Source: Bdellovibrionota bacterium
Lineage (GTDB): Bacteria > Bdellovibrionota > Bdellovibrionia > Bdellovibrionales > Bdellovibrionaceae
Length of the DNA: 64,000 nt
Reading direction: 5' to 3'
NCBI GenBank assembly: GCA_052034855.1
Contig: JBPOIE010000023.1
Location: 13,534 to 77,533 of the forward strand
The translations under genes were made by a program, and so were the position numbers. Shown here piece by piece: positions 17,044 through 39,850 of the stretch; the first letter of the stretch is position 1; the number at the start of each line of letters is the position of its first letter. The notes beneath the pieces are model-generated. The model did not search any database. It saw nothing but the letters and a program-made list of their open reading frames with translations, and had not been told where the DNA came from.

Positions 17044-17062
17044 ATTTACAATCTCGTTAACT

Positions 17063-17138: not shown

Positions 17139-17158
17139 ACTTAATCTAATAATAAAAA

Positions 17159-20324: not shown

Positions 20325-20350
20325 TTAGTCTCCTAATGAAGAATTGATAG

Positions 20351-21784
20351 GTGTACAGAATGAAAGCTTATATTTTTTTTATCTCGTTTGCAATTTTATC
20401 AATAACACGCACAGCGCTAGCAAACACGACGACCAACTCTGTTGTTTTAAATTCGCAAAGTGTTTTGGACATCTATAAAAAACAAAGCATAAAACCAAAA
20501 GAACTTGAAAACACTTTATACAGCAGCCAGCTGATTTATGAAACTTTAGATTTGAAATACAAGTTTATCACATCGATCGATGTGTCACGTGCCACAGATC
20601 ACACAGACTCAACATCAACAGGTTTACAACAAAATAACGACACAAATAAATACTCGTGGCTGACGACAAAACGGTATTTAACAGGAACAACTCTTGGATT
20701 AGAATTAACGCATTTGGATAACGCACTTGGAACGATGTCATCCACAACGGGACGAACAGATACAAATCAAAATTACTTTACAGTCAGCGTTGATCAGCCG
20801 ATTTATCCGAATTTTATGGGCTCACAAGAACAGTCCACGTATGCTTCAGCGGCACAGGATTACGAACTAAAAAAAATCCAAACTGATTTTGACCAGCTAA
20901 CAGCGCAAAAAGATCTGCTGAAACTTTTCTGGAAAACAAAAGCCTTGGCTCAATCTGTTGAAGAAAATACCAAGCTGATTAACGAGTACGATCGACTGGC
21001 CAAAAAAGTTCAACAAAAACAATCGAATCAGTTTGCGTCCGCAGGTGAACTCGAACAAGCACTTTCTGAGTACGAAATACGAAAACAATCTCTGAAAGCA
21101 GATCAATCCTCTTTATCGCAAGCTCTCCTTGATTTAAAAACCAGTCTGAACTTGCCAACAGAGACTGAAATTAAATTTGATCTTAAATCCCCCGCATTTA
21201 CGGCCCCCGTATTTAAAACAACGACGACGACGGAATTGAAAAAATATAAGTATCAACAACTGAAATTACAATCCGTTGAAAACTTATCGACAGCAGTGAC
21301 AAATTCAAATCTGCCGCAATTCAGTGTCTATGGTAAATACACGCAATCTGGATTTGATCCGTCAAATTCAACGGCGCTGGACGAAGCAAAAGATGCAAAT
21401 TATCAAAAGTACGTCATCGGCGTAAAAATGGACTACACTTTCGATAACGAGAAATCAAAATTAGATGAAAAAATTAAAAAATTAAATCTGGATATCGAGC
21501 AATCGAAAACAAATCGTGCACCGCAAGATTTAATGGCGCAAATTGAATTAGCCCAAAAAGATTTATCAGCCAGTTTTGAAAATATCACTTCGAACAAAAA
21601 AATTCTTGAGTACCGCAAAAAAGCCGTCATCGATATTTCAAAAAACTATTTTCAAGGTCGCACTGACATCAGTTTTTTGATTGATGCTTATAACAAAAAG
21701 AATTTGGCCGAGATTAATTTGATTTCTTCGTATGGCGATTACGAAACAAAGAAAATTGATTACGAGATTTTGACTCTGCAATAA
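20351..21784 (+). CDS. TolC family outer membrane efflux channel
   Basis: Signal peptide, alternating beta-hairpin and long helical segments (PQFSVYGKY..YVIGVKMDYTF), YFQGRTDISFLIDA tail. Start GTG 20351 or ATG 20360. Confidence 0.75.
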   Translation: MYRMKAYIFFISFAILSITRTALANTTTNSVVLNSQSVLDIYKKQSIKPKELENTLYSSQLIYETLDLKYKFITSIDVSRATDHTDSTSTGLQQNNDTNKYSWLTTKRYLTGTTLGLELTHLDNALGTMSSTTGRTDTNQNYFTVSVDQPIYPNFMGSQEQSTYASAAQDYELKKIQTDFDQLTAQKDLLKLFWKTKALAQSVEENTKLINEYDRLAKKVQQKQSNQFASAGELEQALSEYEIRKQSLKADQSSLSQALLDLKTSLNLPTETEIKFDLKSPAFTAPVFKTTTTTELKKYKYQQLKLQSVENLSTAVTNSNLPQFSVYGKYTQSGFDPSNSTALDEAKDANYQKYVIGVKMDYTFDNEKSKLDEKIKKLNLDIEQSKTNRAPQDLMAQIELAQKDLSASFENITSNKKILEYRKKAVIDISKNYFQGRTDISFLIDAYNKKNLAEINLISSYGDYETKKIDYEILTLQ

Positions 21785-21793
21785 GGCTAAAAA

Positions 21794-22570
21794 CTATCTG
21801 CCTTTAAATGCCTTCGAAACTCCAAAGTTAAACAGACTCTTAAAATGTGTCGCTGTTTTAAAAGCGATCCCTGTTGTTCCTACAGGCTCTAAATGCGTTT
21901 GATCTGATTCGATCGCAGATATAATTCTTAAGGCATATTCATCAGGACTGATCGAATCTTTAGGGACTTCGATATTTTTTGAATACAATTTATCGATTTC
22001 ATCGAACATGCGGGTTTTGATTCCTGGAGTGAACAAACAAAGTGTAGAAACCCCTGTTCCTTTTAGTTCTTGCTCTAAGCAATCTGTAAATGCCCATACT
22101 GCAGCTTTCGAAGCTGCATAGGTTGATGCACTTGGAAAATGCATCACGGCCGAAACACTCGAATGATTGATAATTTTTCCGTGTTTCTGCTGAACCATTT
22201 TCGGAACCACAGTATGAGTTAATTGGATTAACGCATTCACGTTCACTTGTAACATTTGATAAATATCATCAATTTTTTGTTCATCCAATAATCCGCCGGT
22301 TAACAGCCCTGCATTATTAAACAAAATATCAATTTTATGATTTTGAATTTTTTGAATCAAACTTTCAACACCAGAGCGTGTTGATAAATCAGATTCTATG
22401 ATTTCAACCGATAAGGCTCCCAATGATTTTAACTCTTGAATCAAGTTGTCATCATTTTTTCGGATCGCTAATAAAAGATGTGTTTTTCTTTTCGCACAGG
22501 CCTTGGCAAAACCTAAACCAATACCACGATTCGCACCTGTGATTAAAATATTTTGATTTTCTATTTTCAT
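21794..22570 (-). CDS. Short-chain dehydrogenase/reductase
   Basis: TGANRGIG, NNAG, catalytic YAASK. Confidence 0.92.
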   Translation of the reverse strand: MKIENQNILITGANRGIGLGFAKACAKRKTHLLLAIRKNDDNLIQELKSLGALSVEIIESDLSTRSGVESLIQKIQNHKIDILFNNAGLLTGGLLDEQKIDDIYQMLQVNVNALIQLTHTVVPKMVQQKHGKIINHSSVSAVMHFPSASTYAASKAAVWAFTDCLEQELKGTGVSTLCLFTPGIKTRMFDEIDKLYSKNIEVPKDSISPDEYALRIISAIESDQTHLEPVGTTGIAFKTATHFKSLFNFGVSKAFKGR

Positions 22571-23307
22571 GATTTTCCCCAGGCCTTTAAAAGCTCTGAT
22601 TCTTCTGAACTGGAAGTCACTTTTTTAAATTTTACGCCAGGACGGCCCTTAACGGCCGCTTCGCATTCCTTCCAGGTTGTGTATTTTGTAACTTGATTAT
22701 TGATCAGACTTAAGTACCAGGTTTCTTTTTTTTCTGTTGAGCTACTTCCTACAGATTTCATGTCAGGAAGCGCTTCTTCTGTCGGAAGTTGTGTAATATC
22801 AAATAAATAATTTGCGACAGATCCTGAATACAATTCAACAGATTGACGTTTTGAAAGGGCAACACCGATTTCATCACAGCGCTCATTGCCGTGAATTCCC
22901 TTGTGACCGCGGATAAAGCTCCATTTTATTTTTATTGGATAGGCTTTTGAAATTTGAAAGAGCAAACGATCCATCACTTGCCACAGATCTTGATTGGTCA
23001 CATCTTTTCCGTCGGCTGTTTTCCAACCTCGTTTTTTCCAACCAAATAACCATTGTGTAGAGCCGCGAATGACATAAACCGAATCTGTAAAAATCTGAAG
23101 AGAGGCTACCGCTTGATAACGTTCTAAACAAAACTGCAAACCAGAAATCACAGCTTGCATTTCCATACGATTATTCGTGGTTTGCGGATAAAACTCACCT
23201 AACTCTGTCACCGTATTAAAATCAGTTACGATACTGCCGTATCCTCCGGGACCAGGATTTCCAGAGCACGCACCGTCTGTATAGATTAAAATGTTTTCTG
23301 AATTCAT
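22567..23307 (-). CDS. rnhA: Ribonuclease HI with C-terminal hybrid-binding (caulimovirus viroplasmin-like) domain
   Basis: YTDGACSGNPGPGG, TNNRMEM, TDSVYV, GHKGIHGNERCD; tail YTTWKECEAAVKGRPGVKFKKV resembles the hybrid-binding domain. Confidence 0.9.
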   Translation of the reverse strand: MNSENILIYTDGACSGNPGPGGYGSIVTDFNTVTELGEFYPQTTNNRMEMQAVISGLQFCLERYQAVASLQIFTDSVYVIRGSTQWLFGWKKRGWKTADGKDVTNQDLWQVMDRLLFQISKAYPIKIKWSFIRGHKGIHGNERCDEIGVALSKRQSVELYSGSVANYLFDITQLPTEEALPDMKSVGSSSTEKKETWYLSLINNQVTKYTTWKECEAAVKGRPGVKFKKVTSSSEESELLKAWGKS

Positions 23308-23480
23308 AAGTTTTAAGTATGTTTCAAACTGTCAAACTGATCAACACCTAGGAAATATATTCATAAAACTATGTTATTTGATAAAAAAACAGTCTCTCAT
23401 ATTATGTTCTTGCGTCAAAATAGTCTTTTAAAATTAAGAGTTTAGCCCTGATCTGGTGTCAACTTAGATCATTTTACATG

Positions 23481-23496
23481 TGGTACAGGAATCGCA
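23481..23496 (+). promoter_or_regulatory. Putative sigma54 -24/-12 promoter (module 1)
   Basis: TGGTACAGGAATCGCA versus consensus TGGCACG-N4-TTGCW; GG and GC at exact spacing. Confidence 0.55.
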
Positions 23497-23511
23497 ATAG
23501 CCTTTTAAGTG

Positions 23512-23526
23512 GTCTCAGATTGAGAC
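23512..23526 (+). promoter_or_regulatory. Palindromic operator-like site GTCTCA-N3-TGAGAC (copy 1)
   Basis: Perfect inverted repeat 15 nt before the barrel start codon; variants at 27900 and 47311. Confidence 0.55.
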
Positions 23527-23541
23527 AGAAAGGCACCATCA

Positions 23542-24420
23542 ATGCTTAACGTGCAAAAAAACTTTAGGATTTTGGTTTTATGCTTAGCATCTTCGATAAC
23601 TGCTCTTGCAGCAGAGCCTTCGACGACAGCTGTCAGTACATCGCCACTGCCTCAGACCACATCAACGACGACGATAGCTACTCCAGTTTTAAATAACGAG
23701 ACCGCAAAGAAGTTCAGCTTAATCACCGGCCTTGAATATTCACAAAAAGTCGAAGTCGAAGAAAACACGGAACGCGAATCCAGCACAGATTTATCATTTA
23801 TGGCTACATATAAAATTAATGATCTTTATAATGTGTCGGCAAAAACAGCTTTAACACAAGAGAATAATGGCCCTAAAAATTCTTCGATATCTGATTCAAC
23901 AGTCGGTTTTACCGTTAAGGGTGTTAAAATCAACGATCAGTGGATCACGACACATGCGATGTCTTCGATTTTACCAACAAGCGAAACTAGTCAAGACCGT
24001 GATCGATTAAGAGCTGCGATTGCGATCACGAACGGAGTTTCGTATTCAGGCGATTTACTGAAAGCGAAGTACAGTTTAGGTCTGTCAAAAAACTTTCATG
24101 AGTTCGATCAAAATGCAGAAGGCACTTTCTTAAACGAATACCGTATCACAAACTTGATTAGTCTTATTGTAACAGTGTCGGACAAGTTTTCAGTATCAGT
24201 GTCTGGACTTTACCGCATCAGCTACACATACGACAAAATAGATCGTTACGGTTTTGGTACTTTTGGTGATCTAAACTATGCTTTTAAAGAAGATCTATTT
24301 ACAAATCTTGGCGTTTCAACAGAAGGCAACGCTTTGAAATCGAATGGTGTTGATTCCAATATCAACATTTATGACGACACAGCCTCTGTCGTTAGAGCTG
24401 GATTAACTTATGTTTATTAA
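23542..24420 (+). CDS. Predicted outer-membrane beta-barrel protein (module 1)
   Basis: Signal peptide ending ALA, Thr-rich linker, amphipathic beta-strands, C-terminal aromatic (AGLTYVY); C-terminus homologous to 27964..28935. Confidence 0.65.
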   Translation: MLNVQKNFRILVLCLASSITALAAEPSTTAVSTSPLPQTTSTTTIATPVLNNETAKKFSLITGLEYSQKVEVEENTERESSTDLSFMATYKINDLYNVSAKTALTQENNGPKNSSISDSTVGFTVKGVKINDQWITTHAMSSILPTSETSQDRDRLRAAIAITNGVSYSGDLLKAKYSLGLSKNFHEFDQNAEGTFLNEYRITNLISLIVTVSDKFSVSVSGLYRISYTYDKIDRYGFGTFGDLNYAFKEDLFTNLGVSTEGNALKSNGVDSNINIYDDTASVVRAGLTYVY

Positions 24421-24481
24421 AATTAAGAATTTAAAGAATAAGAAATTACAAAAAACGAACACTAAAAAGATTGAGGGGAAA

Positions 24482-27400
24482 ATGGTAACAAATTTTAACA
24501 AACAAAAAATAGTTCTCAGCCTGATGGCCGTAGGTCTTCTTGGGTTGGCCAGTTGTACGAAAAAAGTAGCGTACGAAGAAGTTGCAAAAATTCAGGAAAA
24601 AGAGAAAATTCTCTCGAAGTCTGTGATTGATACCAAATCAGAGTTTTTAATGGCAGCTTCTCAACAGCAGTCAAGCCGATCAGCAATTGATGCTTTTCCT
24701 TTCTTAGCAGGCGACAATAAACGCGTTAAAATCGAGATCGATAAAGATGTCATGCGTATTGTAGAGACCGAAAAAGACGAACGTTTTAAATCGAACGAAA
24801 CGAATACAAAACTTGTTTTAGAAATTCCTATTGAACATGTTCAGTACCGTTGCGCTAAAGATAAATATGGAAATTGTACGAATAAAGAAGAAGAAGCTGA
24901 CGATATTCCTTGGGATTCAAAAGATACAATGAAAATTAATTTTGGCGCAGCAAAATCGGGTCAACTTGATTTATTGCCTATAATGTCAAGTCAAACTGTC
25001 GGTGAAAACTGTTACGAAGAAGTCAGTTCTCGTTTAACAAAAGCTGATGTTGAAAAAGATGCGATCAACTTTCAAGTTCTACGAACGTTTAAAACTCGTT
25101 TGGAGTGTGTGACTGGTGAAGGAGCTTCATCATTCGCAGAAATCATTACTGATGCGACGATCAGCGCTGTGTACCACTATTCTTTAGTGAAAGTGGATTC
25201 AATTTTATCAAAAGACTATAAAACGATTTCATACCCTGTTTCATCTAAAGATGAGCAGACGTTTGGTTTTTTCAGCACGAGCCGTACTCAATTAGATACT
25301 GACAATAATAATACGGACAAAAGCACAATTCAAATCATGAATCGTTGGAATCCGAATCGTAAAGAAATCGTTTATTTTTTAAGTGATGAATTTGCGAAAC
25401 CTGAAAATAAAATGATCAAAGATTTAACTTATAAAACAGTTGATAATCTAAATAAAGGTCTTGAAATTTCTGGCGTTAATTTCAGAATTAATCTGAAAGA
25501 GCCCGCTGGAAAAATCCCAGGTGATATCCGTAACAGTATGATCGTTTTGGTTGAAGATCCAGTTGCTGCAAGTGTGATCGGATACGGTCCACAAACTGAA
25601 GATCCTAAAACAGGCGAGATCATTTCTGCACGAACTGTGATGTTTTTAGGAACAATTAAAAAATTCGTTCAATACACGTACAATGATATTCTTTTACAAA
25701 AGAAAAATGCCAAACTTGAAGCAGCCAAAGTTGCTAAAACTTTGATGCCGTCTTTATCATTATCTCCAAATATCGTTGCTATCACAGAAGCCAAAAAGAA
25801 AACAGGCCGTGCATTTAGTTTAGCGAAATTAAATGAATCAGTTTCTGCTCAGGTAGGAAAGGGCGCAAAATCAAAGGAATCAATCAAATCAGCTCCTTCG
25901 ATTGGTTTAGGTTTACAAAAATCTAAAATCGAAAAAGCTTTAAAGAATTACACAGCTCAACGTAACGAGGAATTTTCAGGAACTGATTTAAAATCAAAAG
26001 TGAAATACCTTCATTTAGCAAAAAACTGTGCTTTTTCTCCGAACAAAGAATCTATTGCTGGAGAAATCAGTCAAAAGTTAGCAGATCAATTTCCTGATGA
26101 TGCCAAAGACTGGCATGATCTTTCAGCTGAAGAAAAAGAACAGGTGATCGCCATCATTTTACCTGAAATTTGGGTACCTACTTTAATTCATGAAATGGGT
26201 CACAATTTAGGCTTACGTCATAATTTCCAAGGTTCTGAAGATAAAGCGAACTTTTACTCGACAGACGAACTTGCACAAAACGGAATTGAACATAAAGTGG
26301 TTTCATCATCAGTGATGGAATATATCGAGGACCTCAAGGCATTACCAATTTTAGGTAAATACGATATCGCAGCCTTAAAGTTTGGATATTTGCGTGAAGT
26401 TGAAGTTAAGAAAGCAGATGGCACAACTGAAATGGTGAAAATTCCTAATACTTTAGAAAAATTGTCAGCTGACTTTAAAGCAAACAGCTTAGAATTAAAA
26501 GACTACGGTTTTTGTACTGATGAGCACACTGGGATTAATGCTGGTTGTAAACGTTTCGACTTAGGAACTTCGTACACAGAAATCACTCAGAACTTAATCA
26601 AAGGCTACGAAGATGCTTACGAGCACCGAAACTTGCGTGATGGCCGTGCAAACATGAGCTTATTTGATGACTTAAGATATGCTTCACGTATCGGTGGAAT
26701 CTTTACTGAATTACGTATCATGATGGAAGTTCGTGAACGTATTAAGTACCGTTTTGGTCTTGATGATGCGGCTCCTGAATGGGACAGTATCGAATTTTTA
26801 AAAGATTTGAAAACAGCGACTTTATTAGGTGGTCAGTTTATGGCGAACGTGTTGTTAGTTCCGGATACAACATGTGCTGTGGCTTTAGCTTCTAAACCGA
26901 ATCAAATTATTGCGGTTGTGAACTTAAATCAAATTGATCCAGAAGCGATGTCATGTGCGAAAGCTCAATTAAATCCAAACTATTTAGTTGTTGGACAAGC
27001 TGGTAAATCATTTAACTCTAAAAAAGATCCTGAAAGCACAAATAACTATGCTGATCAAATTGATATGCGTGGTATTTGGATTGATAAATTAATGGCGACA
27101 CGAACTTTAATGAGCCGTCAAATCGGAATCCACAGCATGGATTTAAATGTTGATAGTTTCTTAAACGTTCCTGAATTACGTACTGGAATCTTAGACGCTG
27201 TTGGCGGATTATTAACAGATAACGTGGTTGCAAAAGTTCCATTTACTTTGAACGACGGATCTGTGGCTGAATTTGAAATTGGATATGACCTTTCAACAAC
27301 TCAAGTGATTGAAAAATCAATTCACCCAATGATTGCTCGTCGCTTTGGAATCAACGAAACTGGATCTACGCAATTACAACAAGTTGTTGCTGGTACATTG

Positions 27401-27808
27401 GCACGCAATGCCTACGATAAATCTGGTGCACACTCTGAAGATAACGTTTTATCTGATCTGGTTTCAGTTCACAGATTGAATGAAGTTTCAGATATTCAAC
27501 CAGGTGCAAAAGATCAGTTCGTGATGATCGACAATGCAAAATATATTGCGACAAAATCAAATGCATATGCTTTTGATGCTATTCAAAACATGACAATCTC
27601 GACGCAACTTGAAAAAGTAGCTCCAGAGAAAATCGGCGAAATTTTGGATGCTAAATTAGGTGGTCAGTTAACAACTCCGACAGACGCAACTGCCGAAGAA
27701 AAAGCGGTCTGGGCGATGTCAGCTGAGACTTTAGATGCTTACCTCAATCAAATGATCAAGCCGTCTAAATTCTATGAGCAATTACTACGAGTTTTACCCG
27801 GCGCTTAG
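24482..27808 (+). CDS. Large lipoprotein zinc metalloprotease, Met-zincin (EcxA/DUF4953-like)
   Basis: Lipobox LGLASC, HEMGHNLGLRH (HExxHxxGxxH), Met-turn SSVMEY. ATG 24482 has a GAGGGG SD and is preferred over 24410. Confidence 0.85.
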   Translation: MVTNFNKQKIVLSLMAVGLLGLASCTKKVAYEEVAKIQEKEKILSKSVIDTKSEFLMAASQQQSSRSAIDAFPFLAGDNKRVKIEIDKDVMRIVETEKDERFKSNETNTKLVLEIPIEHVQYRCAKDKYGNCTNKEEEADDIPWDSKDTMKINFGAAKSGQLDLLPIMSSQTVGENCYEEVSSRLTKADVEKDAINFQVLRTFKTRLECVTGEGASSFAEIITDATISAVYHYSLVKVDSILSKDYKTISYPVSSKDEQTFGFFSTSRTQLDTDNNNTDKSTIQIMNRWNPNRKEIVYFLSDEFAKPENKMIKDLTYKTVDNLNKGLEISGVNFRINLKEPAGKIPGDIRNSMIVLVEDPVAASVIGYGPQTEDPKTGEIISARTVMFLGTIKKFVQYTYNDILLQKKNAKLEAAKVAKTLMPSLSLSPNIVAITEAKKKTGRAFSLAKLNESVSAQVGKGAKSKESIKSAPSIGLGLQKSKIEKALKNYTAQRNEEFSGTDLKSKVKYLHLAKNCAFSPNKESIAGEISQKLADQFPDDAKDWHDLSAEEKEQVIAIILPEIWVPTLIHEMGHNLGLRHNFQGSEDKANFYSTDELAQNGIEHKVVSSSVMEYIEDLKALPILGKYDIAALKFGYLREVEVKKADGTTEMVKIPNTLEKLSADFKANSLELKDYGFCTDEHTGINAGCKRFDLGTSYTEITQNLIKGYEDAYEHRNLRDGRANMSLFDDLRYASRIGGIFTELRIMMEVRERIKYRFGLDDAAPEWDSIEFLKDLKTATLLGGQFMANVLLVPDTTCAVALASKPNQIIAVVNLNQIDPEAMSCAKAQLNPNYLVVGQAGKSFNSKKDPESTNNYADQIDMRGIWIDKLMATRTLMSRQIGIHSMDLNVDSFLNVPELRTGILDAVGGLLTDNVVAKVPFTLNDGSVAEFEIGYDLSTTQVIEKSIHPMIARRFGINETGSTQLQQVVAGTLARNAYDKSGAHSEDNVLSDLVSVHRLNEVSDIQPGAKDQFVMIDNAKYIATKSNAYAFDAIQNMTISTQLEKVAPEKIGEILDAKLGGQLTTPTDATAEEKAVWAMSAETLDAYLNQMIKPSKFYEQLLRVLPGA

Positions 27809-27835
27809 TTCTTAGATAAATTCTTGTTCTGATTC

Positions 27836-27868
27836 AAAGGGATCTCTGGAAACAGAGATCCCTTTTTT
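27836..27868 (+). terminator. Intrinsic terminator after protease 1
   Basis: AAAGGGATCTCTG-GAAA-CAGAGATCCCTTT followed by a T run. Confidence 0.9.
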
Positions 27869-27895
27869 CATTTAAAAATTCCAAAGCTCAAATAC

Positions 27896-27918
27896 GAGTG
27901 TCTTACTTTGAGACACTC
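27896..27918 (+). promoter_or_regulatory. Palindromic operator-like site (copy 2, extended)
   Basis: GAGT-GTCTTA-CTT-TGAGAC-ACTC: the same core as 23512 with one mismatch, plus 4 extra palindromic bp. Confidence 0.55.
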
Positions 27919-27935
27919 AGTTTGAAGAATCTTCA

Positions 27936-27951
27936 TGGCATGCTGATCGCA
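27936..27951 (+). promoter_or_regulatory. Putative sigma54 -24/-12 promoter (module 2)
   Basis: TGGCATGCTGATCGCA; same TCGCA -12 variant as module 1. Confidence 0.55.
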
Positions 27952-27963
27952 AATTACTAGCTT

Positions 27964-28935
27964 ATGATGAAGATAAAACAGCTTAAAGAAAACATATTAG
28001 GTTTAAAAACAAAAAGTCTGCAAAAAGTGACGTTTTTGGCAGTTTTTAATTTAACCTTAGTCAGTACAGCTTTTGGTACAAATCGTTCATTGGCTGCGGT
28101 AGTTGATCCTATTAAAGCTCAGCTTAAACAACAGCAAACTTATGATTATAAAATTCCTAATTTCATCAAAACAAAACCTGATTATACATTCAAAGCAACT
28201 GTTGAGGTTTCAAGAAGTACAAGTCTTTATGATTTTAAAGATGGTTCTCGTTCGGATAGTTTAGATCTTTTATTCTACCCTATTTTAAAAACGCCAGTTG
28301 GAACATTTAGCCTTAAAGAAACTTATTCTAAAAATTTAAATAATGAAGCTGATACGGCCAATGGTTTTTCCGATGCGACGATTTCATATGGTTTTGGCGC
28401 TAAAGACTGGGAGTGGTCGCCACCTTATGTTTTAACAATGTCGCCGTCAATTTCAGTCGTGGTTCCAATTTCAGATCTTTCAGTTAAAAAGAATCAATTA
28501 CAAACTGCTGTTGCAGGTGGATTAACTTTTGGAATTCGCCCTGATGGTTTAGCTGCAGAAAAAGCAGGATCTTGGAATGTGGCAATGGCCGTGACTGCGG
28601 GTCGCAGTTTTCACACATACGAAGAAGATATTAATGGTTCAGTACTCAATAAATACTCATCGAATCAAACTTTAAGCTTAGGTTATTCGATTTCAAATTG
28701 GAGTTTTGGCTTATATTATACAAATCGTTCACGTTGGACCTATCAAGGGAATATTAAACAATCCTTTGTTCTCAGCCAAGTAATATCATATTCATTCAAC
28801 GACAATTTTTACGCAACAGTAGGCCATAGTAACGATGCCGGATCGGTTTTAAAAGCCAACGGTTTTGAATCAAATATTCAAATCGTCGATGAGAACAATT
28901 CGGGAGTTTATTTAACTCTCGGAAGTACATTTTAA
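27964..28935 (+). CDS. Predicted outer-membrane beta-barrel protein (module 2)
   Basis: Signal-like N-terminus, amphipathic strands, terminal Phe (LTLGSTF). GSVLKANGFESNIQIVDE aligns with GNALKSNGVDSNINIYDD of barrel 1. Confidence 0.65.
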   Translation: MMKIKQLKENILGLKTKSLQKVTFLAVFNLTLVSTAFGTNRSLAAVVDPIKAQLKQQQTYDYKIPNFIKTKPDYTFKATVEVSRSTSLYDFKDGSRSDSLDLLFYPILKTPVGTFSLKETYSKNLNNEADTANGFSDATISYGFGAKDWEWSPPYVLTMSPSISVVVPISDLSVKKNQLQTAVAGGLTFGIRPDGLAAEKAGSWNVAMAVTAGRSFHTYEEDINGSVLNKYSSNQTLSLGYSISNWSFGLYYTNRSRWTYQGNIKQSFVLSQVISYSFNDNFYATVGHSNDAGSVLKANGFESNIQIVDENNSGVYLTLGSTF

Positions 28936-28987
28936 TTTAATTGAATTTATTTAAAGAACGAATTTAAAAAAGAAGAGGGAGACACAG

Positions 28988-31900
28988 ATGAACAAAACGA
29001 GCATAACAACAAAGGGATTACTGCTGATGAAGGTTTTAGTCACACTGGCTATTGTCAGTTCGTGTACGAAAAACAGAGTTGCAGAACTACCTGAAGATAC
29101 GGCACCTAACGTCTATGAAATAGCCATGTTTGGATCGCCTGATGAGAACTCTTCATTTGTAGCTTCAAAAGACGAAGTTTCTGCAGCTTCAGATAATGAG
29201 CTCAGAGTCTTAGATTTAAATCAAGCTGGCAAATTATCAGCGGATGAGGTTTCTGTCCCAGCACGCGTCAAGTTCATGTTCGATAAACTCCCAATGACGA
29301 GTCAAACGACGAAACAGTTTAAAATTACATTTTCTGTCGATAAAAATAATATCACTGCATACAAAGTTGCAAGCTCTGCAAAAGACTTAAATGCCATCGA
29401 AAGAAGTTTAGCCATTTCTGCACGCGAGGCCAAATTATTAGTTAAATTATCTCGTGCACAAAAAACTGAATTAAAGGCATTAGCAAGTGAGCAAAAAGTT
29501 GCTGCTGTTGAAAGAGAAAAAATTAAAGCTGGTCAAGCTGTCGGTGCATTATTAGTCCCAATGTTTAAATATGAAATTGCAGGTTATGGCGTTTTAGAAA
29601 GAACTAAAAACGAACTCAAAGAAGAAACTGCTGTTTTACGTCTGAAAGAAACTGACTGGTCAAAAGCAACTCATATCCAAATCAATTCACGTACTGATTC
29701 ACGTAAAGTGGTAGGAATGGATGCGAGTCAAGCCAAGGCAATGAATCAATTATTTAAAGAAGATAAAATTGATAAACGCTTAACAACAGCTGGTGAATTA
29801 GCGACTGATTTAAAAGTTGGTTTAAAATTTTTAGATGCAAAAACTCAAGTGATGACAAAGTTATCTGCGGGATCACTTCTCATTTATGAAGTCAGCGATG
29901 TTTCAAAATTAACTGATGAACAAGCACGTATCTATAAAGCTGGTGGATCATCAGGACGCGTTGTTTCTTGTTCTGATATCGAAGTGAAAGACGTTGTTAA
30001 ATCAACAAGCGCAACTTGCGTTGTCGTTCTTGTTGCTGACGTTCCTGTCGCTTATAAAAAATTAGAACTTTCTTTAACTGATGTGAATGGCACAACGTCA
30101 TCAAACGTTGAATCAAAAGATGTTCCAAAATCACAAAGCGTAGGACTTGTTGAAATTTTAGAGAACACGAAAGCAAATCAACGTGAAGTAACTGGGCTTC
30201 TAGATCCAGACAGTTCAATTAAAATTTCTGATCTGCAAGGTGAATTCATGTTCCGTCGTACTTTTGAAGATGCTGCGACGACATTCTTAGGTCGCACGGG
30301 AACTTCGGGTGATATGGCTTTAGTCAAATTTGAACTTGAAAACGACCGCTTGGTTGTCAGAAATCAGTTGTCTTTATTAGCTTACACAGGTCAAGGCGCT
30401 AAAGACCGTGAAGAAATTATGTCGATTCCAGTCAAGTACTACTACTCGACTCGTCAAGATGCTCACGGAAGTGACTTAGTTTTAGGTTCATTGATTGAAA
30501 CCACAAAAGATAAAGCGAACTACATCAAATTAGATTGGACTCAAAACGCTATTCCAGACTCTTCGTCTCCATTAGCATTTTTCGATGCTGGCAGTTGCTT
30601 CATGGCGACGTCTTCTAAAAAAGTGACTCATACTGATATGCGTTTAGCAAATGAAGGTGTCCTTAATTTCTCAATCAGCAGTTCCCACACCGTGAACCCT
30701 AATTGCGCAACAATGAAGGATGTGAACTCAGCTTATTGGGCTGGTTCAATGCAATTGAATTTTAACGTCTTAGAACGTATTTCATTTGTTAAACGCACGA
30801 ATACTGATACAGATAAACAATTTTCTCAAAATATTTCGTTCATGGCTCAAGAAGCTTTCAACTTTGGTGTATTCACATTAGCTGACAAAGTGAATGAAAA
30901 TGGATCTTTTTCGAATCGTGATGGCAGTGAAAAATACATGCCTATGATTCACGATTTACGTAACGGTAAAACAATGAAGTGGTACCTAGGTGGTATCAAC
31001 GATAAAACAGCGACTGATCCAGAACGACGTCAATTATTAATCGAAGCGACTCAACAAGTCGTTGCTGAATGGAATAAAACATTCGCTATTTCGATGAAGG
31101 GAACTTCACTTGAGCGTAGCGGTGATTACATCGAATTAGTGATCGAAGACGCTGGAAAAGAAACAGGTCGTCTTGGTGATTTAAATCGCAACTATATCTG
31201 GTTGAATGAAATTCCTGCTGATAACGGATTACTAGGTGTCGCGCAACCTGCTGCGAACCCACGTTCGGGAGTTATTGAATCTGCAAACGTGATCGTTTAC
31301 ACAGGAAATACTTTTGAACAAACTCAAATCTTGTTAAAAATGACGGAATTGTCTCGTAAATACGAGAAAATGATCGAAGAGTTAAAGAAACAAGCCATTG
31401 CAGAAGCAATAAAGAAGAAAGAAGTTGTTTCTACTCAAACTGAATCAGTGAAAGCAGAAAACAAAGATGCGAACAAAAAAACAGTTCAAAAAATTTCTCA
31501 ATTAGGTCATAAGAACAAAGCTTACCTCGCTAACTTGGTAAAGTACTTCGAATTAGAAAATAAAAATGTTAAAAAAGCCATCCAAGGTATGGCTATGGGT
31601 CAAAGTGCTGAGCAATTAAAGCGAGTTTTAAATAAAGATACTTTTAAATCGAGTATCAAATCAGAAAAAATTCAATTGCCAACGAATTCAATGACTTTGT
31701 CTAAAAAAATGACTGACCTTGCGATGAATAAAAAATTAACTCAAAATGAGCGTGAGTTTGAATTGAAATTAAATGATTTATTCTTAAGCCACGGTTCTTT
31801 ATCAGATGACGTGAAAGCAATTATCAACAAACGCCAACAAATGTTAGCTTTATCAGTTCAATTTGATAAGTCGACACAAAATCGCCCAGGTTGTTTCAGA

Positions 31901-34114
31901 TATTCTCGTAATGACATCAATGACGAAGCTTTAGCGTTAGATGCTGATCCTCGTAAAAATTTGATGTTGAACTTTAAACAAGCTGTGATGAGCACGTTGT
32001 CTCATGAATTAGGTCATGCATTTGGCTTAATGCATAACTTCACGGCTTCAACGGATAAAGCGAATTACGAATTTAAAGGTGAAGAAACTGGTCGAAATTA
32101 TTCATCGATCATGGATTACATCAGTGATATCGATCAACAGTACGCTGGTCCTGGTCCTTATGATGCTCATGCGATTCGTGCAGCTTACACAGGTTATGTT
32201 GAATTGAGTGATGAAGTTTTAAAAAATGAAAAACAAATGGGTGCAATTAAGACAGCAAAAATCAATTTGATCAATGGTTCGATGATTCATATCAATGATT
32301 TAGTTCGATTGATGGGTGCAAATTCATTTGTTCACTTTACTAAAGAAACTTTAAACAAAGCTGGAATCGTTAAACATTATGCTCAATGTAGCGACGGAGG
32401 AACTTTAACTTCAATTATGTGTAATCGCTTTGATACTGGTGGATCGGCAAAAGAAATCGTTCAAAATATGATTGCTGATTATACTCGTTCATATGCAAAC
32501 AGAAACTATGTTTATGACAAGATTTTATTTGGATGGCCGCAAAAAATCCAAGTGATCTCTCGAAACATTCAAACATTTTCACAGATTCGCGCATTCCTTG
32601 ATGAAACAATTATGACGGCGATTTACGGATCTGGACGTCCTGACAACGTGAACGAAGCGATTATGCAGGATCAAGTGATGGCATCTATGGAAGGTTATAA
32701 ATTTTTCCATGAAGTCATTCGAACTCCAGAAACGTCTTCGAGCTTTTCTGATGTTAATAATCGTTTCTTTGCTGTCCCTTACCAATACGAAGCAATGACT
32801 ACGGATGCATCTGGAGCTCAGACAAAAACAGTGAAAGATGATGTTAAAATTGTAGAAGCACGTTCACTGTATGACGTCGGAATGTCTCGCGATAAAATTG
32901 ATACAATCGGTATCGGCTATGATAAAATTTTTGCGATGAATTTTTTAATGCAAACAACGACGGCTTTTGGAACTGACGATAGCCAACAAGGTTTTATCTC
33001 TTACAAAGATTTCGAACAGTTTTTCTTAGGTGTGACGGATCCAAAAGATTCACTGACAGTGAATACAATGGCTGAAATCTTAACTGAGAACTTGCAAGTA
33101 GCATTCTTTGCTCCGAACGGTCAATTAGTGAATATGAATGCCCCGGTGGAAGTGAATAAATCATTAGGTGATCAAACGGCTCTTGCTGCAATCGTTGGAT
33201 TATCTGAGTCAAAATGGAAAGCATTTGATTCATTTGCTGAAAGTTTCAAAATGGCTCGCGCGACAGTGAAAAACGCACCGAAAGATCGTTTAAATATCAC
33301 TCGTCTTGGCCAAGATCGTTCAAAGTCAGATACAACTGTTTACTTTGCAACTCAGAATGGTGTTGCTGCAAACGTAATTATCCAACAAGCTGCGATGGGT
33401 GATACATTATTATCAAACCAAAAAGATCTGTTTCAGTTATTATCAGATTCAATGACGGCTGACACAGGCTTTATGGACAAGATCAATGCGGCACGAGATG
33501 CAGCATGTACAACAAATGATGATGGCTCACTGAAAGATGAAGCTGGTTGTAATGCGGCATATGCGAAACCGGTGGCTGACTATATTAAAGAAGATGCTAC
33601 TCTTGTTGCGCCGAAACAAAAAGCCGACAATGTTGCTAAAAAACTTGTGAACAAAATTCGACAGTTGAACGCTCAAGGTGCGATCATGCCAAAAGAGCTA
33701 GATAAACCTGAAGCTAAAACAAATTTTGTGATGCAAGTTGAAACGGTTCGTTCGTTCATGAATGATCAAATGACATTGTTATTGTCATTGAAGAAAGAAC
33801 TTGAAAAAGCACCGGCTGAAAACTTAAATCAAACGATCCAAACGGTATTACAAATCATTGGTCAAGTTCGTCAGCAAAATGATCAATTGTCAGCAATGCC
33901 ATTGGTCGCATACACACAATCATTTTTAATTGAGGCTTCAAAAACAGTGAAAATCAAATTGGCATCTGGTGACGAGTTAACTGGTGAAGTTTTGATGACT
34001 CGTATGATGAATGGATCAAAAATCCAGAACTCTCACGAAAAGATCGTTGATGTCATCGACAAATTAACTCAGTTTTCACGATTTGTTGATCCTGACTTAA
34101 TTGTTACAAAGTAA
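28988..34114 (+). CDS. Giant (1708 aa) lipoprotein zinc metalloprotease, Met-zincin
   Basis: Lipobox AIVSSC, HELGHAFGLMH, Met-turn SSIMDY; NPRSGVIESANV parallels DPKTGEIISART of protease 1; GAGGGAG SD. Confidence 0.85.
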   Translation: MNKTSITTKGLLLMKVLVTLAIVSSCTKNRVAELPEDTAPNVYEIAMFGSPDENSSFVASKDEVSAASDNELRVLDLNQAGKLSADEVSVPARVKFMFDKLPMTSQTTKQFKITFSVDKNNITAYKVASSAKDLNAIERSLAISAREAKLLVKLSRAQKTELKALASEQKVAAVEREKIKAGQAVGALLVPMFKYEIAGYGVLERTKNELKEETAVLRLKETDWSKATHIQINSRTDSRKVVGMDASQAKAMNQLFKEDKIDKRLTTAGELATDLKVGLKFLDAKTQVMTKLSAGSLLIYEVSDVSKLTDEQARIYKAGGSSGRVVSCSDIEVKDVVKSTSATCVVVLVADVPVAYKKLELSLTDVNGTTSSNVESKDVPKSQSVGLVEILENTKANQREVTGLLDPDSSIKISDLQGEFMFRRTFEDAATTFLGRTGTSGDMALVKFELENDRLVVRNQLSLLAYTGQGAKDREEIMSIPVKYYYSTRQDAHGSDLVLGSLIETTKDKANYIKLDWTQNAIPDSSSPLAFFDAGSCFMATSSKKVTHTDMRLANEGVLNFSISSSHTVNPNCATMKDVNSAYWAGSMQLNFNVLERISFVKRTNTDTDKQFSQNISFMAQEAFNFGVFTLADKVNENGSFSNRDGSEKYMPMIHDLRNGKTMKWYLGGINDKTATDPERRQLLIEATQQVVAEWNKTFAISMKGTSLERSGDYIELVIEDAGKETGRLGDLNRNYIWLNEIPADNGLLGVAQPAANPRSGVIESANVIVYTGNTFEQTQILLKMTELSRKYEKMIEELKKQAIAEAIKKKEVVSTQTESVKAENKDANKKTVQKISQLGHKNKAYLANLVKYFELENKNVKKAIQGMAMGQSAEQLKRVLNKDTFKSSIKSEKIQLPTNSMTLSKKMTDLAMNKKLTQNEREFELKLNDLFLSHGSLSDDVKAIINKRQQMLALSVQFDKSTQNRPGCFRYSRNDINDEALALDADPRKNLMLNFKQAVMSTLSHELGHAFGLMHNFTASTDKANYEFKGEETGRNYSSIMDYISDIDQQYAGPGPYDAHAIRAAYTGYVELSDEVLKNEKQMGAIKTAKINLINGSMIHINDLVRLMGANSFVHFTKETLNKAGIVKHYAQCSDGGTLTSIMCNRFDTGGSAKEIVQNMIADYTRSYANRNYVYDKILFGWPQKIQVISRNIQTFSQIRAFLDETIMTAIYGSGRPDNVNEAIMQDQVMASMEGYKFFHEVIRTPETSSSFSDVNNRFFAVPYQYEAMTTDASGAQTKTVKDDVKIVEARSLYDVGMSRDKIDTIGIGYDKIFAMNFLMQTTTAFGTDDSQQGFISYKDFEQFFLGVTDPKDSLTVNTMAEILTENLQVAFFAPNGQLVNMNAPVEVNKSLGDQTALAAIVGLSESKWKAFDSFAESFKMARATVKNAPKDRLNITRLGQDRSKSDTTVYFATQNGVAANVIIQQAAMGDTLLSNQKDLFQLLSDSMTADTGFMDKINAARDAACTTNDDGSLKDEAGCNAAYAKPVADYIKEDATLVAPKQKADNVAKKLVNKIRQLNAQGAIMPKELDKPEAKTNFVMQVETVRSFMNDQMTLLLSLKKELEKAPAENLNQTIQTVLQIIGQVRQQNDQLSAMPLVAYTQSFLIEASKTVKIKLASGDELTGEVLMTRMMNGSKIQNSHEKIVDVIDKLTQFSRFVDPDLIVTK

Positions 34115-34137
34115 TTTTAAGCTCAAGTAAAACTTTG

Positions 34138-34169
34138 AAAGGGTTTCTGGAAACAGAAACCCTTTTTTT
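34138..34169. terminator. Bidirectional intrinsic terminator between protease 2 and addA
   Basis: AAAGGGTTTCTG-GAAA-CAGAAACCCTTT with a T7 run, between convergent genes. Confidence 0.9.
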
Positions 34170-37100
34170 ATTTTAAATCCAACTCTTTGAAGTCCACAAT
34201 TTTCTGAAACACTTTTTCTTCAACTGGATAGAGAACACCTAAAACCACTTGATGATCGACATTAATGAATTTCATTTCTTTCAAGCAACTGGCGTAAAAT
34301 CGTAATTGCTCAAAAGCACTTTCGACATGATCCGACGTCCCCGTTTTATAATCTAAGACGTAGACTTTATTTGCTAAAATTCCCCACGCATCAATCTGAC
34401 CTTGGATCATCTTTGATTGATCATTGTTTTTAACTTGCAGACCAAATCCCCATTCGACATGACCTTGCTCTAAAATTTCAGACAAAGGAATTTCAGTTTG
34501 AGCGATCAAATAATCTAAATACCGACTGGTTTTTTCTGTCGTCCATGATTTGACGTCTTGGAGTGAGTTGTACTTCAAAGATTCAAACAACTTGTGTAAA
34601 TCTGTCCCCGTTTTTGCTTTCATGAGATTTTGGACAAATTGATTTGAGATAACAGTTTGCTTAGAATATTTAGCTTTAGCAATTCTTTCAGTCACAGACT
34701 CTGCTGAGTCTTCTACCGATGATAAAATTTGGAAGGGCTCTTTTATCTCAGATTTGAACTTATCTCTTAATGGCAAGACGACGGGTTCAGAATCGTCACG
34801 TAAAGACAGAACAGTATAGTCTGCGCTAGGAAATTCTCCGATCTCAGGCCATTTTGACTTTGCAAACCACGTCGTTGATAAATTCTTTTTCTTGTCTTCG
34901 GCGATTAAGGAAATCGAAGTCATTGCTCGTGTCATTGCCACATACAGCAAGCGTTCGCTTTCGGCATGTTCACGTTGATTAAATTGTTGTCTGATTGATT
35001 GTGACCAAAAACTATTTTTTATTTGAGAATCTTCTGCTGAAAAAACTCCTAAATTATACAGTCCGCGATCTTCATCTTTAGCCAGTGGCATGATCGTTGT
35101 GACATTTGGTTGATCCTTCATTCCGATGACGATCACGTGCGGGAATTGTAAACCTTTGGCATTATGAATAGTCATCAAATTCACTCGCTCTGGAGAAGTC
35201 ACTGGCTGAGCTTCCGAAAGGTTACTTCCTAGATCAGATTGTAAACTTGAAAACTGGTTCGTTAGATATTCATTCAGGTGAAAACTTTTATGATTCATTT
35301 GATCACGTAGGTTCTGAATGAATTTCCAAATGTTCGCTTCTTTTTTCCCCGTCGCGTCCAAGTACTCGCAAGATTCAAGCATTTTCGAATTAGAAATGAA
35401 GTCTTTCGTCGTCTGCAAAATGCCCTGATCATTCATTTGAGATAAATATTTTTGCAATACGAAAATGTCAGGATGATTTGAGGTCTTTAATTGCACCCAA
35501 AGATGAGGTTCTTTTGAATTCTGACGAAATCCGACTAGTTCCGGGTCAGTCATCAAAAACCAAGGGCTACGTAAAAGTTGAATTAAATTTTCAGTGTCAT
35601 AAGGATTCACTAAAAATCTGACAAATGAAACCAAATCTAAAATTTCGCGCCGATCATCAAAGCCTGCTGCCACCATCAACTGGACCGGAACGTTATATTT
35701 CCCCGCCTCTTGCGCCAGATTCATCAATGATGAATTCTTTTTACTTAAGACACAAATATCTGAGGCTTGGGCACCGAGCTGAATCAGTTTTTGTATATGA
35801 ACTAGCGCAGCTAAAGTTTCATTTTGTGATTGAATGTAATAGGCCTCAGAAAATTGTTTGTCCGTCTGACTGTCCTCAGGCTTGTGGTCCATGGGTTCAA
35901 AGGCTGTCGAAAAATCAGTAAAAAATTGATTCATGAACTTCATCAGACTTGGACGCGAACGATAATTCGTATTTAAGCGAAGGTTTTCGTAATTTCCTTG
36001 AAGAGCTTGTGATTGCTTAGATAAAAAGACTTCGGAACGAGCGCCGCGAAACAGATAAATACTTTGCTGAGGATCACCAACGATAAAATGAGGACGATTC
36101 CCAATAAATTGATTCAATATTTGCAATTGCAAAGGAGACGTATCCTGGAATTCATCAATCATAAAATAATCAAACTCTTCAGAAAAAAGACGCGCTTTTT
36201 CCGGAGATTTTTTCAGAATTTGTAGGCTCAATGTTTCTAAATCAGAAATTGTGATTTCATTTTTAAAACGACGTGCCGCCTTGATTTTTTCCGAAAACTG
36301 GATCTGCAAACGATGAAATAGTTCATTGATACGGTGATTTTCAGAGATATATTCATCCGTATCCAGTTGATTTAATATGGCTTTAGCACCCGAAATATAT
36401 TTTTGCATTTCTTCATGCAGTTCAGGATCAAATGCTGGTTTTTCTGTACTAAATCTCTGTTTTGACGGCAACTCATCAGAAATCTGAAGCGCAAGCTCTA
36501 AATTTTTTTGTATTAACGCTTGTCGAATCAATCCGAGCTGCTGGAAATACTCAAACCAACCTTTTCCAGTCGGTGTTGGAAGTTCGGTCAATGTCTCTAT
36601 TAAAGAAATAATTCGAGCAAATTCTTTTTGTCTTCGTTGAGTCAGATCCTCGGCCGTAACAAAAGAAATTGCACTGTGCTGATTTGAAAATTCAAAAGTT
36701 TTATCCAAATGATCTAACAAATTTTGAAAGGAATAATGTTCTAAAAGCTCAACAAAATCGGTATTAGATTTAAAAATAGATTTTAATTCTTTAAAATTTT
36801 GTTTTCTAATTTGTTCTTTATCTAAAACTTTAAAATCCGAAGAAAGACCCACATCATCTTGGTATTGATTCAAAAATAAACCTAAAACTCCGTGAATCGT
36901 CGAAATATGAACAAATGATTTCTTATTGATATACGCAAACAAATCTTGATCATTCAATTCAAGGGCTTTGACCAAAAGTCGTTCTTTGATTTCTTGAGTC
37001 GATTTACGAGTGAAAGTTGTTAATACAACTTTCGGGTATCGCTGATACTGAGATTTGAACTTTTGAACAAAATCGATAAAAGTTGAAATAAGCCGAGTCG

Positions 37101-37176
37101 TTTTACCAGCTCCTGCACCGGCTCTTATAAAGAGATTAGGATAGTTGAATTTTAGTTCAGGTGGGGGGCTCGACAT
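34168..37176 (-). CDS. addA: AddA-type helicase/nuclease
   Basis: Walker A AGAGAGKT, IDEFQDTS, VGDPQQSIYLFRGA, MTIHNAKGLQF, LYVAMTRA, nuclease GQID..LDYKTG. ATG 37176 has a GGAGG SD. Confidence 0.88.
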   Translation of the reverse strand: MSSPPPELKFNYPNLFIRAGAGAGKTTRLISTFIDFVQKFKSQYQRYPKVVLTTFTRKSTQEIKERLLVKALELNDQDLFAYINKKSFVHISTIHGVLGLFLNQYQDDVGLSSDFKVLDKEQIRKQNFKELKSIFKSNTDFVELLEHYSFQNLLDHLDKTFEFSNQHSAISFVTAEDLTQRRQKEFARIISLIETLTELPTPTGKGWFEYFQQLGLIRQALIQKNLELALQISDELPSKQRFSTEKPAFDPELHEEMQKYISGAKAILNQLDTDEYISENHRINELFHRLQIQFSEKIKAARRFKNEITISDLETLSLQILKKSPEKARLFSEEFDYFMIDEFQDTSPLQLQILNQFIGNRPHFIVGDPQQSIYLFRGARSEVFLSKQSQALQGNYENLRLNTNYRSRPSLMKFMNQFFTDFSTAFEPMDHKPEDSQTDKQFSEAYYIQSQNETLAALVHIQKLIQLGAQASDICVLSKKNSSLMNLAQEAGKYNVPVQLMVAAGFDDRREILDLVSFVRFLVNPYDTENLIQLLRSPWFLMTDPELVGFRQNSKEPHLWVQLKTSNHPDIFVLQKYLSQMNDQGILQTTKDFISNSKMLESCEYLDATGKKEANIWKFIQNLRDQMNHKSFHLNEYLTNQFSSLQSDLGSNLSEAQPVTSPERVNLMTIHNAKGLQFPHVIVIGMKDQPNVTTIMPLAKDEDRGLYNLGVFSAEDSQIKNSFWSQSIRQQFNQREHAESERLLYVAMTRAMTSISLIAEDKKKNLSTTWFAKSKWPEIGEFPSADYTVLSLRDDSEPVVLPLRDKFKSEIKEPFQILSSVEDSAESVTERIAKAKYSKQTVISNQFVQNLMKAKTGTDLHKLFESLKYNSLQDVKSWTTEKTSRYLDYLIAQTEIPLSEILEQGHVEWGFGLQVKNNDQSKMIQGQIDAWGILANKVYVLDYKTGTSDHVESAFEQLRFYASCLKEMKFINVDHQVVLGVLYPVEEKVFQKIVDFKELDLK

Positions 37177-39836: not shown

Positions 39837-39850
39837 GCCTTAAGCATAGA

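Follow-up and report, generated by a model that had tools for sequence, protein, structure and literature searches.

Tandem pairs of a predicted outer-membrane beta-barrel gene and a giant lipoprotein metzincin gene in Bdellovibrionota

A 64,000-nt stretch of contig JBPOIE010000023.1 (assembly GCA_052034855.1) from a Bdellovibrionota bacterium, hereafter referred to as the window, contains four plus-strand genes at positions 23481-34169. They form two tandem modules, each made of a gene for a predicted outer-membrane beta-barrel protein (B1 or B2) followed by a gene for a giant predicted lipoprotein metzincin (P1 or P2). Analysis of these genes and of their homologues revealed that the module is a two-gene unit specific to Bdellovibrionota, in which a barrel of about 12 predicted strands, belonging to an unclassified family, is combined with a 120-190 kDa lipoprotein of the DUF4953 family. 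That barrel and protease are functionally coupled is well supported by the barrel fold, the intact metzincin site of the lipoprotein, a linkage robust to genomic context, co-duplication of the pair, a common promoter type, a Cys-Thr-Lys (CTK) sequence at the lipidated end of the protease and conserved outward loops of the barrel. As to the nature of the coupling, we assign a probability of about 0.4 to the reading that the barrel is a dedicated outer-membrane partner, which would hold or expose its protease at the cell surface through the lipidated CTK tether.

The two-fold repeated layout had been proposed in an earlier note made from the window sequence, and all of its parts were located in both modules (Table 1): a sigma54-type -24/-12 box, a palindrome, a gene for a signal-peptide protein of about 300 amino acids (aa) ending in an aromatic residue, a short AT-rich spacer with a strong Shine-Dalgarno (SD) sequence, a lipoprotein metzincin gene of the announced size and a terminator with a GAAA loop. 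The spacers are 61 nt long with SD GAGGGG between B1 and P1 and 52 nt long with SD GAGGGAG between B2 and P2. An alternative in-frame start of P1, an ATG upstream at 24410, would yield a protein of 1132 aa. The modules are made of paralogues: B1 and B2 are 28% identical (E 1e-13), and P1 and P2 are 25% identical (E 2e-20). The GC skew turns positive locally across 23481-34169, consistent with plus-strand coding.

The structure of B2 was predicted with AlphaFold2 from a 45-sequence alignment (mean predicted local distance difference test score, pLDDT, 73.9). In the model, a signal peptide and a disordered linker (residues 38-69) precede some 12 long antiparallel strands, which run from residue 75 to the C-terminal Phe. 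DSSP gives 13 elements, of which the short ones at 138-143 and 147-152 were taken together as a single kinked strand; a 14-stranded barrel is also possible, as loop 290-313 is modelled with low confidence. Foldseek comparison of the model with the PDB returned only generic outer-membrane barrels, with probability 1.0 to OmpF, FapF and Tsx. The template modelling (TM) scores were low (0.35-0.52), the best being those of FapF (0.46/0.52) and Tsx (0.39/0.47); the OmpF match had an E value of 2e-8 and a TM score of just 0.37. A signal peptide, a closed antiparallel barrel and a C-terminal aromatic residue, the features by which outer-membrane barrels are recognized, are thus all present in the prediction, and the model supports the view, put forward in the earlier note, that the upstream proteins are outer-membrane beta-barrels. 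B1 has a Sec signal peptide followed by a Ser/Thr/Pro-rich N-terminal linker and is assigned as a barrel by its homology to the modelled B2.

Neither B1 nor B2 has any match in Pfam or NCBIfam, and a profile of the barrel family revealed no relative among PDB sequences. When 30 members of the family were compared with Pfam at E<=5, only sub-threshold matches to DUF2490, OMP_b-brl, DUF481 and LptD_2 were obtained, and assignment to these families was rejected on that ground; no DUF560, Autotransporter, ShlB, Omp85, PorP_SprF, Tsx or KdgM match was detected. Members with a long N-terminus carry only an Ala/Lys/Ser/Thr/Pro-rich low-complexity extension and no folded periplasmic domain. The tetratricopeptide repeat (TPR) region of SLAM proteins is absent, as anticipated: there is no TPR Pfam match and the N-terminus is disordered and of low complexity.

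Conservation was computed on 202 barrel members sharing <70% identity. Conserved positions cluster in the predicted long loops of the extracellular side rather than in the strands. They include, in B2 numbering, P168-S-x-x-S173, R214-N-F-H217-x-Y and G225, and the most conserved segment of all is the last loop, G287-H-S-N-x-G-x-x-L-K-x-N-G-x-D-S-N...E-N-x-S313, with 85-99% identity. In B2 itself this signature loop reads GHSN.GS.LKANG.ESN...DEN.S (residues 287-313), and its placement in the AlphaFold2 model is of low confidence. The C-terminal motif G..LK.NG..SN, which had been noticed as common to the two barrels of the window, therefore turned out to be the best-conserved segment of the whole family. 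The GHSN motif recalls the 'HxSNG' look of an OMPLA-like outer-membrane enzyme; this idea was dropped, as the B1 branch does not conserve the His.

A word-index search yielded 133 homologues of B2 and 23 of B1, all from Bdellovibrio-like organisms and all either without a name or annotated as 'hypothetical'. By full profile search the family comprises 1101 clusters at 50% identity, 413 of them at E<=1e-30. All named members come from Bdellovibrionota (Bdellovibrionia and Bacteriovoracia). One distant member was found in a metagenome-assembled genome (MAG) of Bacteriovoracia, so that at least two classes of the phylum are represented. Two MAGs carry other labels, Bacillota (locus L038) and Moraxellaceae (L055, also P0374); the locus in each is a typical Bdellovibrionales one with SDR/RNase H or UvrD flanks, and these bins are probably contaminated or mislabelled.

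Both P1 and P2 score above the gathering threshold (24.2 bits) of PF16313, the DUF4953 'Met-zincin' family, with 42.5 and 35.2 bits, respectively. As the earlier note had it, the HExxHxxGxxH zinc site and the Met-turn are intact in both proteins. In P1 the zinc site is HEMGHNLGLRH (residues 570-580, nt 26189-26221) and the Met-turn SSVMEY (609-614, nt 26306-26323); the corresponding P2 sequences are HELGHAFGLMH (1006-1016, nt 32003-32035) and SSIMDY (1039-1044, nt 32102-32119). Among 35 P1-type homologues H570, E571, H574, G577, H580, M612 and Y614 are invariant, as are nine cysteines, which fit with an extracytoplasmic protein. The signal peptides end in a lipobox, LASC with Cys25 in P1 and VSSC with Cys26 in P2, and a lipobox was found in all protease orthologues with an available N-terminus. 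Judged by these motifs, P1 and P2 are predicted lipoproteins with an intact metzincin site. All 221 close homologues of P1 belong to PF16313, and those that are named are called 'zinc-dependent metalloprotease' or 'Met-zincin'.

The AlphaFold2 model of P1 is confident (pLDDT 82.8, predicted TM score 0.79). It contains a signal peptide with a short disordered tether (residues 1-36), a beta-rich N-domain (43-300), a catalytic domain (300-640) with a helical, partly disordered insertion (420-548) right before the active-site helix, and a large helical/beta C-domain (640-1108). Foldseek found no significant whole-chain neighbour of this model in the PDB, the best matches being fragilysin (E 0.024) and then adamalysins, and the P1 and P2 sequences have no match among PDB sequences. 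The fold of P1 outside the catalytic core is essentially uncharted. The N-domain gave insignificant YceI/lipocalin-like matches, and a SLAM-like cargo barrel domain in P1 is not claimed on their basis. Two orthologues deserve mention. At locus L033 (9700-14863) a P2-type protease is broken into three consecutive open reading frames (ORFs) of 148, 1153 and 381 aa, which reflects a pseudogene or else a frameshift in the assembly of this MAG. The zinc motif of the L016 protease, HEMGHSLGLTH, resembles that of the Bdellovibrio-proper type.

The linkage of the two genes was assessed outside the window in 42 genome loci mapped by BLAST and hidden Markov models, supplemented with look-ups of distant representatives. 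Pairs were counted by hand, a few near-duplicate genomes being included, and barrel genes with enough flanking DNA were taken as assessable. A DUF4953 giant was present on the same strand within 1.8 kb of 55 of the 56 assessable barrel genes. The earlier note had named barrel homologues unlinked to such proteases as the observation that would speak against it; the count shows the opposite. In about 47 of the linked pairs the genes overlap or are less than 100 bp apart, and gaps between called genes range from -20 to +60 nt. Bdellovibrio bacteriovorus also carries the pair (L041).

In most Bdellovibrionales loci the pair occupies the same slot as in the window, where the modules are flanked on the left by a divergently transcribed SDR/RNase H gene pair (21794-23307, minus strand) and on the right by a UvrD-like helicase/PD-(D/E)XK nuclease gene pair (34168-39836, minus strand). 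Taken alone, these loci could reflect inheritance. The pair is, however, also found in unrelated contexts: beside TsaE (L048/L047), beside an M3 peptidase and YkuD (L049), beside riboflavin genes (L052) and in two further surroundings (L056 and L057). It is retained where the flanks are rearranged (L010, L044 and L045). The order is reversed, with the protease gene first, at L050, where the genes overlap and lie in a foreign context, and apparently at L031, whose upstream side is cut by the contig start. Locus L056 contains an independent tandem (287-aa barrel, 1369-aa protease, 292-aa barrel, 1110-aa protease). The unrelated contexts, rearranged flanks, inverted order and second tandem argue against mere inheritance of synteny.

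The type of the barrel matches that of the protease: the gene upstream of a P1-like protease encodes a B1-like barrel, and that upstream of a P2-like protease a B2-like one. The common slot contains only the B1/P1-type module in Bdellovibrio sp. qaytius (L054) and at L055, only B2/P2 in many genomes (L003 and others), and both modules in the lineage of the window (L001, L005, L006, L007 and L020). This distribution points to an ancient duplication followed by differential loss, in agreement with the old duplication proposed from the divergence of the two copies.

Promoter sequences of the modules were analyzed next to those of their orthologues. The pattern TGGYAY-N5-TYGCW occurs just twice in the 64 kb of the window, as TGGTACaggaaTCGCA at 23481 and as TGGCATgctgaTCGCA at 27936, where 0.44 occurrences would be expected. 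Both have GG at -24 and GC at -12 at the fixed spacing of a TGGCAC-N5-TTGCW-like, sigma54-type promoter. By the strict pattern the element precedes 27 of 43 barrel genes, and with relaxed flanks and fixed GG/GC it is found before most of the remaining ones. In Bdellovibrio spp. it takes the form TGGCAC-N5-CTGCA; the -12 element is TCGC in the lineage of the window and CTGC or xTGC in Bdellovibrio. Where the protease gene is separated from its barrel gene, it has a TGGCAC-N5-xTGCA element of its own that agrees with 10 of 11 consensus positions and is followed by a GAGAGTCTCT-type palindrome; this promoter was either acquired or retained. Such phylogenetic footprints suggest a single sigma54-type regulon comprising both genes, and the modules are putatively sigma54-dependent. 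A scan of 20 ORFs in the neighbourhood (13103-23307 and 34168-53863) detected no gene for an enhancer-binding protein.

The part of the earlier description that combined box and palindrome stood for the boxes, but the palindromes are not placed equivalently. That of module 1, GTCTCAgatTGAGAC, has 6-bp arms, which is below the threshold of the hairpin search, and lies downstream of the box, just before the SD. In module 2 the palindrome, GAGTGTCT-N7-AGACACTC, has longer arms (8 bp) and is situated upstream of the -24 box; it is kept in L005 and L006 and partly in L001 and L007. The -12 GC of module 2 (27949-27950) and the B2 ATG that follows it (27964 or 27967) are separated by a mere 12 nt or so, with no SD between them, so the B2 mRNA has almost no leader unless B2 actually starts elsewhere. 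At distant loci the box is located about 70 nt upstream of the barrel start.

Table 1. Positions of the elements of both modules in the window
Feature	Position	Strand	Basis or remark
Sigma54-type -24/-12 element, module 1 (TGGTACAGGAATCGCA)	23481..23496	+	One of two window matches; kept before orthologous barrel genes
Palindrome of the 5' untranslated region, GTCTCAgatTGAGAC, then SD-like AGAAAGG	23512..23526	+	Sequence reading; kept in L001, L006, L007
B1, 292-aa predicted outer-membrane beta-barrel protein, C-terminus ...TYVY	23542..24420	+	Homology to B2
P1, 1108-aa predicted lipoprotein metzincin (DUF4953)	24482..27808	+	Pfam, lipobox, zinc site
Intrinsic terminator, module 1 (13-pair stem, GAAA loop, T-run)	27836..27871; hairpin 27836-27865	+	
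Palindrome GAGTGTCT-N7-AGACACTC	27896..27918	+	Upstream of module 2 promoter
Sigma54-type -24/-12 element, module 2 (TGGCATGCTGATCGCA)	27936..27951	+	
B2, 323-aa predicted outer-membrane beta-barrel, B1 paralogue, C-terminus ...GSTF	27964..28935	+	AlphaFold2 model
P2, 1708-aa predicted lipoprotein metzincin (DUF4953)	28988..34114	+	Pfam, lipobox, zinc site
Intrinsic terminator, module 2 (13-pair stem, GAAA loop, T-run)	34137..34172; hairpin 34137-34166	+	

In every barrel-linked protease with an available N-terminus, P1 and P2 included, the lipobox Cys is followed by Thr-Lys. Residues C25, T26 and K27 are invariant across the 35 P1-type sequences. The extended patterns are CTKK(V/I).(Y/F) in P1-type and CTK.R.AEL in P2-type proteins, so that CTK is kept across classes and between paralogues of about 25% identity. 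Twenty-one other predicted lipoproteins encoded at the same loci have different residues at +2/+3 (AT, AS, SQ, TD and others). Only two DUF4953 paralogues without an adjacent barrel gene were found, and they have CSK and CTY at this position, a contrast that, with n=2, is only suggestive.

Taken together, these data are compatible with the following mechanism. After Sec export and lipidation the protease would arrive at the outer membrane, where the conserved extracellular-side loops of the barrel may engage the CTK tether. The barrel would then keep the protease at the cell surface or expose it there, and the surface protease could act on prey proteins. The physical contact, the surface exposure, the role of CTK and the digestion of prey are inferred. 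A more specific version would make the barrels the translocon or holdfast of a new Bdellovibrionota-specific lipoprotein-display pathway that reads CTK and exposes giant metzincins, a minimal secretion type with one barrel serving one cargo and no relation to SLAM, type V or type IX systems; it is offered tentatively, and we consider it doubtful.

Several observations weigh against a surface-display partnership. As modelled, a monomeric 12-strand barrel without a periplasmic domain would be too narrow for a folded protein of 120-190 kDa, and it has no obvious cargo-recognition module. The CTK sequence could be a sorting signal of the Lol lipoprotein pathway, by analogy with other bacteria, rather than a handle for the barrel. 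In one MAG (L036) the barrel gene (3916-4890) is followed directly by the UvrD-like gene, with no DUF4953 giant, apparently because the protease gene was lost or relocated. In Bdellovibrio proper (L033, L035, L037, L039 and L041) barrel and protease genes are 0.9-1.8 kb apart and no longer form one operon; a gene for a 275-aa protein, read from the opposite strand (8700-9527, minus), lies in the gap at L041. The distance matrices of B2 and P2 from 16 loci are correlated with r 0.35, a value that falls to 0.04 as a partial correlation controlling for RNase H and UvrD. This low correlation is partly due to the aberrantly diverged protease of L016 (8738-13777), which is about 37% identical to those of L017/L019, while the barrel of the same locus is about 57% identical; the protease may thus have diverged faster, or been replaced, while its barrel was kept.

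A rival reading is that the complex faces the periplasm. The protease would then stay inside the envelope, anchored in the inner membrane or in the outer membrane's inner leaflet, CTK would act as the Lol signal, and the barrel would be an outer-membrane docking site, a regulator, a latency factor or a handover route to vesicles or prey. The residues at +2/+3 decide Lol sorting in other Proteobacteria, and in Pseudomonas lipoproteins Lys at +3 and Ser at +4 are an inner-membrane retention signal. The invariant residues of the barrel-linked proteases occupy these very positions, with Lys at +3 and often Ser at +4. The size of the protease also argues against its passage through a small barrel, an oxidising compartment outside the cytoplasm would suit the nine conserved cysteines, and the variable low-complexity N-terminal extension of the barrel, which is periplasmic, could contact the partner. 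The best-conserved barrel segments, however, are predicted to be extracellular and are not periplasmic turns. We regard a periplasm-facing complex as unlikely.

No contact between the two proteins is needed if the barrel is a substrate-specific diffusion channel for peptides or amino acids freed by the co-expressed protease, the module being a minimal 'protein utilisation locus'. About 12 strands, the absence of a periplasmic domain and the presence of Tsx among the better structural matches agree with this, as do polar residues conserved in loops and lumen, which would suit a specific pore, co-regulation of the kind seen in catabolic enzyme-plus-channel operons, and the lack of rate covariation between barrel and protease. 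Yet each duplicated protease has retained a barrel of its own, in the window and independently at L056, though one channel should suffice. Lone barrels are almost never found (1 of 56), and overlaps and gaps of 9-60 nt suggest stoichiometric co-expression. A channel also leaves the family-specific CTK N-terminus unexplained, and the barrels have no Pfam match to the Tsx or KdgM families. We consider this explanation unlikely.

That the genes are neighbours merely through inherited synteny in one clade, without a direct functional link, would agree with the common slot in most Bdellovibrionales genomes and with the missing evolutionary-rate correlation, but it is highly improbable given that the pair persists in wholly different surroundings (L048, L049, L050, L052, L056 and L057), survives rearrangement of the flanks and inversion of the order, duplicates as a unit, and keeps sigma54-type promoters on both genes after their separation.

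The remaining neighbourhood of the modules was also inspected. Upstream of the SDR/RNase H pair (17160-21784) the window encodes a divergent AcrB-family transporter (1054 aa, minus) and an outer-membrane efflux protein (477 aa, plus), and these two neighbours are also found in Bdellovibrio sp. qaytius (L054). The helicase-nuclease pair is followed by three consecutive minus-strand ORFs (39851-42929; 369, 267 and 386 aa) with no Pfam match at E<=1e-5, a Ser/Thr protein kinase of 656 aa with a C-terminal PEGA domain (43592-45562) and an M3 oligopeptidase (48091-50145); an M3 peptidase also lies near the module at L049. The opposite-strand gene in the L041 gap appears to encode a signal peptide.

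DNA nearly identical to 23300-29300 was found only in wastewater and activated-sludge metagenome DNA runs (up to 98% of sampled words), and the loci closest to the window are L005 and L006, from MAGs of Pseudobdellovibrionaceae/Bdellovibrionaceae. The source is thus an uncultured, sludge-associated relative of these MAGs. No RNA runs were found for the window DNA or for the B. bacteriovorus locus.

The searchable literature contained nothing relevant on the barrel-protease pair, DUF4953, DUF5117 or Met-zincin in Bdellovibrio, consistent with the suggestion that the system was possibly undescribed. To our knowledge, surface delivery of lipoproteins is understood in a few systems only (SLAM, the Bacteroidota export signal, spirochaetes), and we know of little on how obligate predators deploy their hydrolytic arsenal. 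The present analysis defines an unannotated barrel family of more than 1000 clusters, its near-obligate association with giant proteases for which no significant whole-chain structural neighbour was found, a candidate sorting motif, CTK, and a common sigma54-type control element. A barrel that does expose lipoproteins would represent a new pathway at the outer membrane, whereas a barrel acting as a peptide channel would make the module a minimal protein-utilisation locus of predators. B. bacteriovorus, which has the pair, is genetically tractable.

A dedicated barrel encoded beside its cargo is a known general idea; the two gene families described here are without functional description. The arrangement resembles SLAM (type XI) systems, in which a barrel gene lies beside its lipoprotein gene (e.g. 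TbpB or fHbp): the co-encoded cargo lipoprotein is present here, and the proposed outcome, surface display, is the same. Unlike SLAM, the barrels have no DUF560 (PF04575) match in the 30 members compared, lack a TPR domain and are predicted to have about 12 strands instead of 14; their proposed cargo is a 120-190 kDa protease without a recognisable C-terminal 8-stranded barrel, and they are confined to Bdellovibrionota. In Flavobacterium, barrels of the PorP/SprF type are paired with giant type IX secretion system (T9SS) cargos, as in SprF-SprB. Many paralogous small barrels, each beside its own giant surface protein, and co-duplication as a unit are features common to both. The barrels analyzed here differ in having no PorP_SprF (PF11751) Pfam match, and their cargo is a Sec/lipobox lipoprotein without the T9SS C-terminal domain, with no sign of a T9SS in the loci. 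Type V secretion offers small barrels dedicated to one large passenger, often a protease (e.g. LepB/LepA exoprotease), with 12 strands in types Va/Ve and two adjacent genes in type Vb. In contrast to Va/Ve, barrel and passenger are separate polypeptides here; in contrast to Vb, the barrel has neither POTRA domains nor a 16-stranded Omp85 barrel, for which it is too small, and the cargo has no two-partner secretion domain. The passenger is, moreover, predicted to be lipidated, and no Autotransporter, ShlB or Bac_surface_Ag Pfam match was found. Since the defining features of SLAM, PorP/SprF and type Vb were looked for and are absent, the barrel is not a member of those families.

The 12-stranded channels Tsx, NanC and KdgM are similar in size and strand number (TM score with Tsx as given above), but there is no family-level sequence match, conservation in the barrels described here is much higher in the loops than in the strands, and the barrel gene is linked to that of one protease. 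The proteases agree with DUF4953 Met-zincins in the Pfam score, the HExxHxxGxxH site, the Met-turn with Tyr and the annotation of their homologues, and are set apart by their giant size, the lipobox with CTK and the long helical insertion before the active-site helix. Finally, lipoproteins are known to reside in barrels in the LptD-LptE and RcsF-OmpA/C/F complexes, and Bacteroidota have N-terminal lipoprotein export signals. The partners considered here differ in being dedicated and co-duplicating, and neither their sequences nor any specific structural similarity relate them to LptD or OmpA. They share with those systems a short conserved peptide after the lipidated Cys and a barrel that may be able to host a tether. 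While this analogy is purely inferential, a tether-hosting barrel of this kind would explain both the invariant CTK and the conserved barrel loops.

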